From assembly GCA_000091205.1 (NCBI GenBank), contig AP006498.2: a stretch of DNA of 64,000 nt. The stretch is one strand, 5' to 3'. The translations under genes and the position numbers were made by a program. Positions 5,733 through 23,088 of the stretch are shown here, one piece after another. Positions within the stretch are counted from its first letter, which is position 1. Every line of letters begins with the position of its first letter. Source of the stretch: Cyanidioschyzon merolae. Lineage: Eukaryota. The notes beneath the pieces were generated by a model that did not search any database, was not told the origin of the DNA, and saw only the letters and a list, made by a program, of their open reading frames with translations.

Positions 5733-6329
5733 GACCTGATCGGTGGCTAGTCGTATCGATTAGACGCAGTGCGCTCCCGACACATGCAGCCGAGCCATAG
5801 AGCGCAAGCGGTATCGGTGCCGACGCTCTGCCCGGTCCGTGTCAGTCCGTAGACTCTGGTACCGGGGCTATCGCTTGTTATCGGTACACCACCAACGCCC
5901 GGGGATAATCCTAGTGCCAGAGGTCTATATAAGCTTCGCTTGCGGACGCCGCACGCTCCTCGCTGCCGGACTTCTCTGGCAGGCGCAGGCATCTGCGAAT
6001 GGACTGCGTTCGATTGCGTCGGTGCCCAGCAGCGAGGCACTTGTGAAATCGATGGATTCTGGTTGAACAATCGACTCCCATACTGCGAGAATCTGGAGAA
6101 GCGGTGGGTTCCTCACTGGATTACCGAAAATAATTGTGGACTCGGGAGTACCGTGTTCAGATCAAACGATAGATCTTACGCCATGCACTAGAAAACCAGA
6201 TTCGATTGCTAATGGACCGCTGAACTCGTCGCTCTGCTCATGCCTTGCGATCTTTTCCGCAGGTTTTCTAGTTTTCGAGACTGGACCATTGAAATGCTGC
6301 AATTAGAGCTTAAAGGCTCATAGAATTTT

Positions 6330-14833: not shown

Positions 14834-15850
14834 CTATACGTCTTCACCCTGCGAAACTGGTGCCCCTCGAGCTCTCTTCGCACCAACTGTTCGTTTCCTC
14901 TTCGGTTCAGGAGCTTCGGAGCCTTCGAGTCCTTGCTCTGTAGTCGAGGCATCAGCACATAACCAGTTCTCCTTGTCTTGCGTGATTCGATGTTGGACGC
15001 GCTGGACGGCGTCACACATGCACTCTAGCTGCTGCTGATACGCACGCCAATCCTCAGCTGACATTTGTCGCCTTTCTGCAAATCCTGGCAGCACGATATG
15101 ACCTAAACTTTCAAGTTGAACCCAGTGACGCGTTGTTGATGGCGAAGTTGCGGCTTGCAACTGGAGCCACTCTCCGGCAAGGAGCTGGTGCAGTCGTTGC
15201 TGCTGGACCTCAGGAAGAGATTGCAGCAGAGTATGAACGTCTTGCCACTGCTGCTCACGAGACAAAAGACGTAGTTCGAACTCTGCTTCACGAACACGCG
15301 TTTCAGGGAGGGCGAATCGTTCGCGATTTTCGCGCAGGCGTGCAACGACCACTTCTCGAGAGGGATTCGGACCCTCGTTGATTACTAAACCCATCTTCGT
15401 CTTCGCCCCGGCCTTGATTTTTTCCCTGTTCACTAAGAAAACCTCAGCCGGATCAATCTGAAGCCCAGTAAACTCTGCGAGCGATTGCTGTCCCAGGAGT
15501 TTTTGCGTTTGCAGGTTCAGTTGGGAGATCGTCTTGCCGACAAGGTACCCGCTCTGTACTATCTGGGACCAGCGCCCAACACCGTGCACCATCAAACACA
15601 GACGCAAGCGGTGAACCTCGTCTCCAGTCCATCCAGGCGACAAACTAAAGTTCCAAAGAGACAAAGCGTGAGGTGCAGCGGGCCCTGGCTTCATGTCTCC
15701 CTGCAGGAGCACAAGCCCAGCGTCTCCAAAGCGTTGACCGGAATTTTGGCGCCAGCATGCGTCGACTGTTGCTGGCGTTTTGCGCGCCAAACTCGGGCGT
15801 TGAACTTTTGTTGTGCGCTTGAGAGCCTCGCCGGCATCTTCGTGACGCAT
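14834..15850 (-). CDS. Myb/SANT-like DNA-binding domain protein.
   Basis: ATG start. WTGDEVHRLRLCLMVHGVGRWSQIV fits the Myb/SANT W..(D/E)E...L...V...G...W..I pattern. The Q-rich coiled C-terminal half ends in a KRKRTVGAKRARG basic tail that may be a nuclear localisation signal. Confidence 0.5.
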   Translation of the reverse strand: MRHEDAGEALKRTTKVQRPSLARKTPATVDACWRQNSGQRFGDAGLVLLQGDMKPGPAAPHALSLWNFSLSPGWTGDEVHRLRLCLMVHGVGRWSQIVQSGYLVGKTISQLNLQTQKLLGQQSLAEFTGLQIDPAEVFLVNREKIKAGAKTKMGLVINEGPNPSREVVVARLRENRERFALPETRVREAEFELRLLSREQQWQDVHTLLQSLPEVQQQRLHQLLAGEWLQLQAATSPSTTRHWVQLESLGHIVLPGFAERRQMSAEDWRAYQQQLECMCDAVQRVQHRITQDKENWLCADASTTEQGLEGSEAPEPKRKRTVGAKRARGAPVSQGEDV

Positions 15851-19575: not shown

Positions 19576-21222
19576 TCAAAGCATTTCTCTGAGCCGCCGC
19601 ATACGACGCGCCAGCACCACGTGCGGTTCATCTGGTTCCACCGGAAGCACCGGAAATGGCTGGCCTCGAGCACGATCCACAATCAGTGCGTTTGCCGCCT
19701 CAAGACCCGTCACATAGGCCTTCTCCTGCGAAAATGAACCGTGCCTGGTATCGATCCAGTCGCCCGCAAAGTAGACATTATTTTGAAGGCCTGCATCCGT
19801 GGCGCGAACTTGTGGAAAGTGTCTGTAAGAGCCCGGCCGAAAGTGCGTCACAGCTCTGGGTGCACGAACCACAGTCGAGTCTATGACGCGAGCTTCGTTC
19901 ATGGCAGAAGCAATGCACTTGCGCAGAATCCGGTCACAGTGCTCCACAATCGAGTCATTATCCCAGACCAAGAGCGACGATGCGCCGTACAAATCCATTT
20001 CAATGACCTCACCAGGTGCATCACCAAATGACTCATCGTGAAGCGCATTCAGATCGAAAAAGGTGCCACCGATATCAGCATCAAAGCCGAAAAATGCATT
20101 ACTCGGACGGTGGAGACGCATTCGGCGATCATAGTACAAGCGTACTGCAAGAACATCTACACTTCCCAAATGCATGAAGCGGCGAAACTGACTCGAGTGT
20201 TTCGCGAGCGCTGCCGACTGCCGTACGAGCGCCTGGGCCCCGGAGATACCCACTGCGAAGATGACGGCATCAACGGGCAGGCGTTCTGGACTATTGCCCC
20301 CGTCCTGCAGCATGAGAGCGTCAACATGGCCTCTGGTTGGATGCAGATCAACGTCGACTACGCGGGTGCCTAGGCGCAGGTCGAGGCCGCGCTGTTGCGT
20401 CATGACTTGTAGCCAGGGTTCGAATACGCGCTCTGCTGTGGTGCCACGGACCCATTTCACGTCAAAGTCACTTTGGTGCGCGAGAATGAAATAATAGAGC
20501 ATACCCAGCGCACCGCTCGCAGAGCACAGCTCACTCGGCGCAAACAAGCCTACCAGTAGCATCGGTTCGAACGCGTTTGTGATGAGACGTTCACTACAGC
20601 CGTAGCGGGTGAAAAGCTCTCGTGCCGTCATCTGGTCATATTTTCTCCATGCTTCTGGCGAGTTGTCAAAGTCTGCCACGGCGTCGAAGAGCGCGAACGC
20701 TGAAAGTCGATCCATCCACGGCAAGCGATAGAAGCGCGGATATATCATGGTGCCGAGTGGGCTCGGTAGTCGTGGCAGCTCGCTAAAGAGCGGCGACTCT
20801 GCTTCCAAACCGGCTGGCGAGTACTGGGCGCTACGGGTGAATCGCGTGAAAGGGTCTGCGTCTCCTGCTAGCCTCAACTGACGATAGACCAGGTCGAAGA
20901 TATTTACATAAGGCTTCCAGAAACCGTGGACGCCAACCTCTACCGGCCTGTTTTCACGCTGAACCCAGCCAGCGGCAAGGCCCCCGATGGATTCACGGCT
21001 CTCGATGAGCGTCACGTGGAAAGCCTCGCGGTTCCGTGGAGAGCTCGTAAGCGCATGGGCAGCGCCGAGTCCAGCCCAGCCCCCGCCGACGATCGCGACC
21101 CGCAGCGGTCTTGTTCTCGATTCAGGGTCCGCGCTTGCAATGCAAGTTCGAAGGCAACGCTGGCGACTGAGGTTCTTGCAGTGACGCGACTGTCGCCTGG
21201 TTGGAAGCGCGCTCTGAAACAT
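19576..21222 (-). CDS. FAD-dependent amine-oxidase-superfamily oxidoreductase, a PDS/ZDS-like carotenoid desaturase homologue, with an N-terminal extension.
   Basis: ATG start. The dinucleotide-binding motif RVAIVGGGWAGLGAAHAL...VTLIESRESIGGLAAGW, the HGFWKPYVNIFDLV block (compare PDS/ZDS GLH.FFG.Y.N...L) and the C-terminal VYFAGDWIDTRHGSFSQEKAYVTGLEAANAL (compare LAGDYTKQ.Y..SMEGA.LSG) place it in this family. A roughly 35-aa basic N-terminal extension is consistent with organelle targeting. Confidence 0.65.
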   Translation of the reverse strand: MFQSALPTRRQSRHCKNLSRQRCLRTCIASADPESRTRPLRVAIVGGGWAGLGAAHALTSSPRNREAFHVTLIESRESIGGLAAGWVQRENRPVEVGVHGFWKPYVNIFDLVYRQLRLAGDADPFTRFTRSAQYSPAGLEAESPLFSELPRLPSPLGTMIYPRFYRLPWMDRLSAFALFDAVADFDNSPEAWRKYDQMTARELFTRYGCSERLITNAFEPMLLVGLFAPSELCSASGALGMLYYFILAHQSDFDVKWVRGTTAERVFEPWLQVMTQQRGLDLRLGTRVVDVDLHPTRGHVDALMLQDGGNSPERLPVDAVIFAVGISGAQALVRQSAALAKHSSQFRRFMHLGSVDVLAVRLYYDRRMRLHRPSNAFFGFDADIGGTFFDLNALHDESFGDAPGEVIEMDLYGASSLLVWDNDSIVEHCDRILRKCIASAMNEARVIDSTVVRAPRAVTHFRPGSYRHFPQVRATDAGLQNNVYFAGDWIDTRHGSFSQEKAYVTGLEAANALIVDRARGQPFPVLPVEPDEPHVVLARRMRRLREML

Positions 21223-21261
21223 GGTAAGCTGCGCGAGTGTCTTCGAACGAAAAAAGGAAAG

Positions 21262-21372
21262 CTCCGCGGCGGGGAGTCGAACCCCGGTCTCGACGGCGTT
21301 GTGAACTGCAACTGCGTCGACAACGTCGTATTCTGGCAGTTACACGAAAACCGTTCGTTAAACTACCGCGGA
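21262..21372 (-). tRNA. tRNA-like gene of 111 nt with non-canonical internal extra sequence (intron or introns suspected). Anticodon not resolved.
   Basis: On the minus strand the 5' acceptor strand TCCGCGG (reverse complement of 21366-21372) pairs perfectly with the 3' strand CCGCGGA (reverse complement of 21263-21269), followed by discriminator G. A canonical T-arm CGGGG-TTCGACT-CCCCG lies immediately 5' of the 3' acceptor strand, preceded by an ..GAGAC variable region, the same layout as tRNA-Asp/Glu-type genes. Downstream is an oligo-T tract (gagc TTTCCTTTTTTCG) resembling a Pol III terminator. The internal region of 77 nt is about 35 nt too long and contains a 12-bp hairpin, TCGACGCAGTTG[CAGTTCA]CAACGCCGTCGA. 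CCA is not encoded. Confidence 0.45.
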
Positions 21373-23088
21373 TGGAGGAATATGATGATGTGAATGACCG
21401 ATCACAATTGATATATAAATGCATTGGCGGGTGATGCGCGTTGGCGACATCGCGGCAGCCGAGGCAGCTGGCACCGACCGCGTTGTGACGCAGGCGTTCG
21501 TGATCGCGCTGCGCAGCGGTCTAGTGCGGGCGACTTCCTGAAGTCGTGCTTCCGGTCTCCCGGGTACGACACTGCACCCATCGGGCCGGTTTGCTGTGAG
21601 AGCGCAGCTCTGGACACGGTGGACCGTGGAAATCATCCGAGAAATGGGTACGTTTGAAACCTAAGTGACTGAGAGTGCTCGCAATCGCACGAAATCCCTG
21701 TTAGATCCATCGATCATGTGGGGAGGAATTCCCTCAGTCATTCGAGACTGGGCGGCATCCGCGGTGCGTTCCACCAGCGCAGCGCTATCGGGCTTTCGCA
21801 CGAGTCGACGCGCTCAGCTTCTGCATAACCGGTTTTTCTTGGAGTTGAATCACTTGAACGAACTGGGATTCCCCGGGTATGCCATTTGTGTTGGAAACCT
21901 GTGAAGAGACCGGGTTGCCTTTGAGGCATCTCAACGTTCCGCAGGTCGCATACCAGTGCATCCATCGGGATCTGCGCCTAGACTGATCTAGCGCTTTCCC
22001 TCGTATGCTGAGTCTGTATCCGAAACTGGCTGTGGCGCCAGCATTTTTCTTTTTTGTTTCACAGAAAGCTAACTTAGAGCAGATATGCCTGCGATGACGC
22101 TATCTCATACCCGCACCCAGAAAAGCGTCCGCCACGTATCCAAGCACCGCTTCCCATATTTGCCCGCGAAGATACACATCATTTCCTCCGTTCCACTCTG
22201 TGGCGAGTCTGTCGTGATCCCCATCAATGACACCTATCGCGCCGGTGTGCATGCAGCAAGGATACGAGACGCGTTTACCGTAACACTACGAGCGTCTGCT
22301 CGAGATCTCCGCTCCATAACGAATCATGATAATGATGATATATGTCAGTCAAACGAAAGCGTTTCACGACCGTTGCTAACGAATATATCCCCAAACGCGC
22401 AAACGGCTCCCAGCCTTTTTCGCCCGATCGACTGGTATCGTTTTCAGATTTTATCCCTGCAGAGTTCGAGCCTGAAAGACCGCCCTATAAAGTTCGCTCG
22501 CCTCAGCTCCCCAGGTCTGATCATTAGCACCACACATCGTCTGATGCTGTGTGAAGTCTTGGTTCGGGAACTCCATGCGTATATTCCCGCATGTTGAACT
22601 CATGTTTGCAAGAATTGCTCGAACACGTACCCTCTGTGTCACAAGAATCTTGTCATCGCCCCGTGGGGCAAATACCTTCTATCGTCTATCTCTCCATATT
22701 TTTTTATTCTGATTCTTCGTTCGAAAGTCGGCGAGATGAGGGTTTTTTTTCGTTTTTCCGGCAGCTGGTGATCACGTCCCCGCAGGATCCTCGCCTTTTC
22801 CGTCCATACATTTCCCTCGGATTTTTATTTCTTCGAATCAGCGCACGTCATACATACTTCCTATGAAAAGTAAAAAAGCATTTGATGACACTTACCTGGT
22901 TATGGAACACCCTTTAGTTGAGGCATTACCATCATGGTACACTTGTCAGGAAACAATGCCCCTGTCTCATGCAAATGCAGACGCCTATTGCGCGTCGAAT
23001 CTGCGTCTGCGACTGCTGCGTCGATTGCGCAGTTTTCGAACACGAGCGCTCGCCCCCAGTGCCTCTATTCGAGCGTTAAACTCGGGTT

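Follow-up and report, generated by a model that had tools for sequence, protein, structure and literature searches.

What does Cyanidioschyzon merolae encode in the short stretch which lies just before its desaturase-like gene? In the window (the whole 64,000 nucleotides of DNA that were analysed, with a G+C content of 54.6%), reading of the minus strand revealed a tRNA-like gene of 111 nt between positions 21372 and 21262. The first-pass annotation had reported there a perfect 7-bp acceptor stem, a discriminator G, a textbook T-arm and an oligo-T terminator, and all these elements were found again: TCCGCGG (21372-21366) faces CCGCGGA (21269-21263) with a span of 110 nt, the discriminator is the G at 21262, the T-arm CGGGG TTCGACT CCCCG occupies 21286-21270 (minus strand) and a T-run follows at 21255-21250. 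The position of the gene just before the ATG of the desaturase-like ORF (21222) is also correct, 39 nt separating the discriminator from this codon on the same strand. The excess of sequence between the acceptor and the T-stem is real, but the body is 79 nt long and not 77, so that the excess over a 72-nt tRNA is 39 nt instead of about 35. Three readings had been proposed for such a body: non-canonically placed or multiple introns, a permuted tRNA, and a pseudogene or SINE head. The results described below allow us to conclude with high confidence that the locus is a nuclear tRNA-Asp(GUC) gene made of three exons (17, 20 and 35 nt), with one intron of 18 nt placed in the D-loop and another of 21 nt at position 37/38. 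From this model we infer the mature ends, the splice junctions (including the exact D-loop junction), transcription, the order of splicing and aminoacylation.

The intact sequence escapes the standard tools. ARAGORN, in default and in intron modes, returned 0 tRNA on the intact sequence, and Rfam at gathering thresholds returned 0 matches. In E-value mode, the Rfam tRNA model gave a partial match of 13.5 bits, which spans a false D-arm, an anticodon stem and the T-arm; a mascRNA-like match (15.8 bits, T-arm and acceptor) obtained in the same mode is not meaningful. Another Rfam match, to the archaeal C/D-box sRNA sR11 at 21381-21435 on the plus strand, is non-significant (13.4 bits, E = 4.1); it faces the leader and the TATA region of the tRNA gene on the other strand, and the matching sequence is not conserved in the orthologues. 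When the ARAGORN thresholds were lowered, an implausible Ala(tgc) fold, its D and anticodon stems mismatched, was proposed for the locus, and 25 matches appeared throughout the window, all spurious, with "introns" of up to 2,329 nt. The best low-threshold match, a "tRNA-Gly(gcc)" at 15352-15598 (minus strand; score 99.0, 152-nt intron), contains a one-mismatch B box (15363-15373); it falls within an ORF of 338 aa (14834-15850, minus strand) and is in all likelihood spurious as well.

The features of the locus exceed chance. The B-box consensus GGTTCGANTCC has exactly one perfect match in the 64 kb, and this match belongs to the present gene (GGTTCGACTCC, 21283-21273, minus strand, inside the T-arm of exon 3); five matches with one mismatch are found in the window, which is the chance level. 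The folding of the pre-tRNA gives a z score of -2.7 versus shuffled sequences.

The identity of the tRNA was sought by an unbiased scan, in which every single deletion of 0-45 nt was made at all positions and ARAGORN was left free to place a canonical anticodon-loop intron. A tRNA-Asp(gtc) with a 21-nt intron accounted for 136 of the 219 ARAGORN hits, upon removal of 15-25 nt from the D region, and filled the top ten scores. Excision of gene positions 18-35 and 56-76 yields a 72-nt tRNA-Asp(gtc) with an ARAGORN score of 117.3 and a regular cloverleaf, the four stems of which are perfect. It comprises the 7-bp acceptor stem, a D-arm with the stem GUUU/GAAU (including G10·U25 and U13·G22) and the 8-nt loop AACGGCCA, an anticodon arm with the stem CGACG/CGUCG and the loop UUGUCGC, a variable region of 4 nt, the T-arm and G73. 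The anticodon G34 U35 C36 stands in a 7-nt loop behind U33, and is identical in all the lineages compared. The spliced 72-mer aligns without gaps with what we take to be the yeast tRNA-Asp sequence, with agreement at 55 of the 72 positions, among them the whole D-arm and the anticodon loop. The yeast-type Asp identity set consists of G73, G10·U25 and C38. It is present here, as G73 at 21262, C38 as the first nucleotide of exon 3, and the pair 10-47 (gene positions) corresponding to G10·U25, which holds in all five sequences aligned. Alternative excisions, including products with Val anticodons and products of 70 or 75 nt, receive ARAGORN scores of 115-118 (118.1 and 115.2 for instance). Since these scores leave the junctions unfixed, the junctions were tested by the geometry of the bulge-helix-bulge (BHB) motif and by comparison of orthologues; BHB geometry, identity elements and orthologues together decided between the Asp and the Val-type excisions.

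In the resulting model, the gene reads, on the minus strand from 21372, TCCGCGG UA GUUU AACG[aacgguuuucguguaacu]GCCA GAAU A CGACG UUGUCG, and continues with [acgcaguugcaguucacaacg]C CGUCG AGAC CGGGG UUCGACU CCCCG CCGCGGA G down to 21262. Exon 1 (17 nt, 21356-21372) holds the acceptor strand TCCGCGG, U8 A9, the D-stem strand GUUU and the D-loop nucleotides AACG up to the first conserved G. Intron 1 (18 nt, 21338-21355, aacggttttcgtgtaact) is inserted in the D-loop between the two conserved Gs and splits the A box. Exon 2 (20 nt, 21318-21337) starts with the D-loop nucleotides GCCA, followed by GAAU, A26, the anticodon stem strand CGACG and U32 U33 G34 U35 C36 G37, the anticodon GTC lying at 21321-21319. 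Intron 2 (21 nt, 21297-21317, acgcagttgcagttcacaacg) is at the canonical position 37/38, and exon 3 (35 nt, 21262-21296) brings C38, CGUCG, the variable region AGAC, the T-arm, the acceptor strand CCGCGGA and G73. The elements thus follow one another colinearly, from the acceptor 5' strand through the D-arm, the anticodon arm and the T-arm to the acceptor 3' strand; a 3' half encoded upstream of the 5' half, which would characterize a permuted gene, is absent from the locus and the permuted option falls. The imperfect hairpin with a CAGTTCA loop which had been noticed in the body does exist, also in the minimum free energy (MFE) fold, and is mostly made of intron 2 sequence; as had been stated, CAGTTCA is not an anticodon loop, for it falls inside intron 2, the real anticodon loop being UUGUCG|intron|C. 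Of the three readings, that of a tRNA gene whose introns are multiple or non-canonically placed is therefore the one retained, with two introns of 18 and 21 nt and a cloverleaf after their excision.

In the BHB geometry used, a helix between four nucleotides of the exon and positions -6 to -3 of the intron is followed on each strand by a 3-nt bulge which is cut after its second nucleotide. This agrees with the published motif of two 3-nt bulges separated by 4 bp, as given in the text of PMC3978253 and PMC3728597. Intron 2 displays a strict 3-4-3 BHB (scan values p=55, q=77, H=4, h=5): the central helix H is formed by U32 U33 G34 U35 with the intron nucleotides acaa (4/4 Watson-Crick pairs), C36 G37 a and c g C38 form the two bulges, and the anticodon stem, with its 5 bp, serves as the outer helix. 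No strict 3-4-3 BHB adjoins this stem at any junction other than 37/38. Intron 1 displays a relaxed BHB, in which H comprises U12-a, U13-a and A14-u with an A15xg mismatch (3/4) and C16 G a and c u G form the bulges; the outer helix is absent and the inner helix h' is acgg/ucgu capped by UUU. A strict or relaxed motif is consequently present at each junction, that of intron 1 being within the relaxed classes described in the text of PMC3728597.

The intron 1 junction was chosen among 45 junction pairs that leave a D-loop of 7-11 nt, the BHB score being summed over four species. The chosen pair has the best summed score (24, versus 18 for the runner-up) and is the sole top candidate which restores G18 G19 in every species, whereas the alternative D-loop junctions score lower and lose G18 G19 in three of the four. 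The model structure with the two BHBs has an energy of -23.9 kcal/mol versus -44.6 kcal/mol for the MFE fold, in which the intron 1 BHB is missing and the last nucleotides of intron 1 and the first ones of exon 2 pair instead with acceptor and D-stem nucleotides. As the MFE fold is far more stable, the intron 1 junction rests on geometry and comparison, not on thermodynamics. A naive BHB scan permitting G·U pairs gave many false candidates; an hBHBh' motif (p=26, q=66) that would excise exactly 39 nt in one piece was rejected, its product having neither anticodon stem nor D-arm.

A scan of metagenomes with the desaturase-like protein gave near-identical C. merolae strains only, and more distant orthologues were therefore sought by a protein search with the desaturase-like ORF. 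The near-identical strains possess the same tRNA gene, from which theirs departs by T7 in place of T6 and by a single substitution within the intron 1 hairpin loop; apart from this substitution they tell little. In one of the contigs recovered (L007; JGI Ga0556030_01595, contig end, 1-200), the sequence begins inside the tRNA gene (positions 6-91, GGTAGTTT...ACCGGGG), and this fragment is fused straight to a complete second copy starting with TCCGCGG, as in a partial tandem duplication; a C-to-G change immediately follows the discriminator. This duplication is probably an assembly artefact. The protein search reached Cyanidiococcus yangmingshanensis (L008; 75% identity of the desaturase-like protein) and two metagenomic relatives (L009 and L010; 77% and 62%, respectively). 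On these three contigs the local gene order is kept, and a tRNA-Asp-like gene stands directly upstream of the desaturase-like gene on the same strand.

The exons measure 17, 20 and 35 nt in all four lineages, and in the three closer ones they differ at a single D-loop position. Across the four lineages, the length of intron 1 is 18, 18, 18 and 22 nt and that of intron 2 is 21, 12, 17 and 60 nt. The variation of intron 1 among the three closer lineages is confined to its 5-nt hairpin loop. In intron 2 of the close relatives, the first a and the last nine nucleotides, ttcacaacg, which include the H strand and the bulge, are kept around a variable middle; with 12 nt, the Cyanidiococcus intron 2 comes near the minimum for a BHB intron. 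The intron 2 BHB of L010 is degenerate, with only 2/4 pairs in H. The CAGTTCA hairpin rests on a perfect tandem GCAGTT GCAGTT of the C. merolae intron 2; hairpin and repeat are both missing in the relatives. Compared with the orthologous introns of 12 and 17 nt, the length of the C. merolae intron 2 looks like the result of a lineage-specific 6-nt duplication in an unconstrained middle.

When the five sequences were aligned, standard pairs filled all 105 cells of the 21 cloverleaf pairs, versus 37-59% when the partners are slid. Two changes are compensatory, 7-66 from G-C to A-U and 50-64 from G-C to U-A, both in L010, and the pair 27-43 goes from C-G to U·G. The shuffle statistic is modest (13/500), as obtained with five sequences. 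Judged from the alignment, this pairing pattern is that of a functional tRNA. Both intron positions are kept in lineages where the flanking protein is only 62% identical; this comparison was not found in the literature covered and is a small addition to it.

The flanks of the gene have diverged with the exception of two elements, a TTTATATA box and a T-run. The box is the sole invariant block in the 68 nt upstream in the four lineages, and ends 30-39 nt before the gene. In C. merolae, a TATA-like element, TTTATATAT, is located at 21411-21419 (minus strand), i.e. -47 to -39 from the first tRNA nucleotide, and is the proposed promoter. On the 3' side, the discriminator is followed by cuuucc and then by the T6 run (21250-21255, minus strand), 7 nt after the discriminator (+8 to +13), which is the proposed Pol III terminator; a T5-T8 run occupies the same downstream place in every orthologue. 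[quoted passage not shown] The description of the locus as a Pol III gene is acceptable with a qualifier, because transcription of C. merolae tRNA genes is proposed in the text of PMC3728597 to depend on a TATA-like box and not on TFIIIC and the A and B boxes.

Other explanations of the locus have to be weighed against the two-intron tRNA-Asp gene. A decayed, non-functional copy with insertions, i.e. a tRNA-derived pseudogene or a SINE-like head, would be compatible with the 39 extra nucleotides of the body and with the failure of the standard tRNA finders and of the Rfam tRNA model on the intact sequence. Yet the four stems are perfect, excision of two segments restores a full cloverleaf with Asp features, and the locus is single-copy in the window. 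Neither degenerate stems nor a loss of purifying selection could be detected, all 105 alignment cells being paired, and the exons are kept in four lineages while flanks and intron interiors diverge. This conservation, with its two compensatory stem-pair changes, argues against a pseudogene or SINE head, which the first-pass annotation had left as an option. Moreover, the text of PMC3728597 counts only 43 tRNA genes in the nucleus and one anticodon that is duplicated, so that decoding of Asp codons should depend on one gene. We consider a decayed copy as hardly credible. A functional intron-containing tRNA with other junctions, for example a Val tRNA (GAC, AAC or CAC) produced by a shifted intron in the anticodon region, or a D-loop reading AACUGCCA, draws its interest from the ARAGORN scores, equal or slightly higher (118.1 and 115.2) for several excisions. 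Against it stand the restriction of the strict BHB on the anticodon stem to position 37/38 and the Asp-type character of the UUGUCG|C loop, of G73, of G10·U25 and of the 3' half GAGACCGGGGUUCGA.UCCCCG, as judged from the established Asp identity elements and from what we take to be the yeast sequence; for the D-loop, other junctions have the lower BHB score and the loss of G18 G19 in three of four species against them. Different junctions are in consequence very improbable.

The proximity of the desaturase-like gene raises the question of a cis-regulatory or co-transcribed element, the segment being primarily a promoter or a 5' leader of this gene instead of, or besides, a tRNA gene. The end of the tRNA gene is separated from the ATG on the same strand by 39 nt in C. 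merolae (21222-21262), 44 nt in Cyanidiococcus (L008:5957-6003) and 40 nt in L009 (5874-5916; this value counts up to an ATG at 5914 which is in frame and precedes the called start), and the linkage is kept in four lineages. However, local gene order is conserved around the locus anyway, so that the linkage alone is weak evidence. A TATA box and a T-run terminator, both conserved, belong to the tRNA gene itself, the conservation pattern of this gene is that of a tRNA cloverleaf, and a side role in regulation would leave the function as a tRNA in place. A primarily regulatory element is accordingly unlikely in our opinion, and the tRNA-Asp gene with two introns stays the preferred reading.

The three ORFs flanking the tRNA-Asp gene are exact matches of C. 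merolae 10D BAM81889, BAM81890 and BAM81891 (CYME_CMP290C). The desaturase-like ORF itself (19576-21222, minus strand) is BAM81890, an exact protein match annotated as "similar to phytoene desaturase precursor". The nearest non-algal relatives of this protein are cyanobacterial (52-55% identity) and bear the names of hydroxysqualene dehydroxylase or FAD-dependent oxidoreductase; on these similarities, the name of carotenoid desaturase, taken strictly, may not apply to it. Since the T-run lies inside the gap between the tRNA and the ATG, either the leader of the mRNA is very short or the mRNA starts upstream of, or within, the tRNA gene. That the tRNA-Asp and desaturase-like genes form a conserved and functionally coupled unit is doubtful. 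If they were coupled, the mRNA might start within the tRNA gene or read through it, for instance as a dicistronic tRNA-mRNA precursor freed by tRNA processing, or the coupling might take the route of a shared promoter architecture.

The expression of the tRNA-Asp gene can be proposed from what is described in this alga. In the text of PMC3728597 and PMC3978253, C. merolae tRNA transcription is proposed to be driven by TATA-like sequences independently of TFIIIC, of which no homologues were found according to these sources, and a TATA-like sequence is reported within about 50 bp upstream of most tRNA genes; T-stretches lie 3' of most of them (PMC3728597). The TATA-like box located about 40 nt upstream of the tRNA-Asp gene would recruit Pol III and the T-run would end transcription, giving a colinear precursor of about 130 nt. 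In this precursor, the intron-exon junctions would fold as bulge-helix-bulge motifs, of the strict form at the anticodon-loop intron and of the relaxed form at the D-loop intron, and these motifs would be substrates of the cmSen2/cmSen34/cmSen54 endonuclease, for which an action on BHB motifs is described in the text of PMC3728597 and PMC4090602. In tRNA-Phe, tRNA-Ile and tRNA-Gly(CCC), the BHB of the anticodon arm is always processed last (text of PMC3728597); therefore, by analogy with tRNA-Phe and tRNA-Ile, the D-loop intron would probably leave first here and the 37/38 intron last. Trimming of the ends and addition of CCA would then lead to a tRNA of 72+3 nt carrying G73, G34 U35 C36, C38 and G10·U25. 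Purifying selection on the exons and the compensatory changes in the stems speak indirectly for such transcription and splicing.

The type of gene described here is already known, and the class has been described for the C. merolae genome in 2013. The first-pass annotation was right in stating that such genes are documented in unicellular red algae, as reported for C. merolae 10D by Soma et al. 2013 (Sci Rep 3:2321, PMC3728597). According to the text of this article, 27 of the 43 nuclear tRNA genes contain introns and nine contain two; 14 introns are in D-loops and 17 at position 37/38, their sizes range from 11 to 69 bp, and both strict and relaxed BHBs occur. The published set represents a sufficient anticodon repertoire in which only Gly(CCC) is duplicated, and the present gene is hence almost certainly the catalogued tRNA-Asp(GUC). 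The running text of the literature covered contains no explicit entry for a C. merolae tRNA-Asp, and the tRNAs which it gives as tested experimentally are Asn, Phe, Ile and Gly(CCC), Asp not being among them. With about 43 genes and essentially one per anticodon in the text of PMC3728597, the gene is probably the only nuclear one decoding GAU and GAC in C. merolae, in which case the alga could not do without accurate removal of its two introns. The locus offers a worked example of a gene class missed by standard annotation, ARAGORN and Rfam both failing on the intact sequence, and the class bears on how the tRNA-splicing endonuclease of a eukaryote can recognize BHBs at ectopic sites in the archaeal manner. 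The value added here is small and consists of an explicit exon-intron model and of the comparison with Cyanidiococcus and two uncultured relatives, in which both intron positions are conserved and the length and interior of the introns evolve freely around the BHB-forming nucleotides.

Among known systems, the disrupted tRNA genes of C. merolae, as described in the text of Soma et al. 2013 (PMC3728597), belong to the same organism and show no difference in kind from this locus. The two have in common intron sizes within 11-69 bp, strict and relaxed BHBs, an upstream TATA-like box, a downstream T-stretch and an A box split by an intron, and all the sequence features of the class are present here: a nuclear gene, a cloverleaf after excision, an ectopic and a canonical intron, BHBs and the TATA/T-stretch pair. 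The circularly permuted tRNA genes of C. merolae (Soma et al. 2007) share the same genome and the same logic of BHB-dependent processing, but in the present gene the halves stand in the usual order, 5' before 3', with an acceptor strand at either end. Canonical eukaryotic intron-containing tRNA genes resemble the locus by their 37/38 intron, by a 3' splice site in a 3-nt bulge and by an anticodon-intron pair, nucleotide 32 being paired here with the nucleotide of the intron that precedes this splice site by 3 positions. The second intron of the locus, in the D-loop, sets it apart from them and would interfere with the mature-domain "ruler" on which the endonucleases of yeast and human rely for recognition. 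The multi-intron hBHBh' tRNA genes of archaea (crenarchaeal and nanoarchaeal) have, like the locus, introns in the D-loop or elsewhere than 37/38, several per gene, and junctions made of two 3-nt bulges and a 4-bp helix. Unlike these archaeal genes, the locus is eukaryotic and nuclear with a TATA and T-run Pol III arrangement, its D-loop BHB is relaxed (H 3/4) and has no outer helix, and the endonuclease is a Sen2/Sen34/Sen54-type complex in place of the archaeal EndA.
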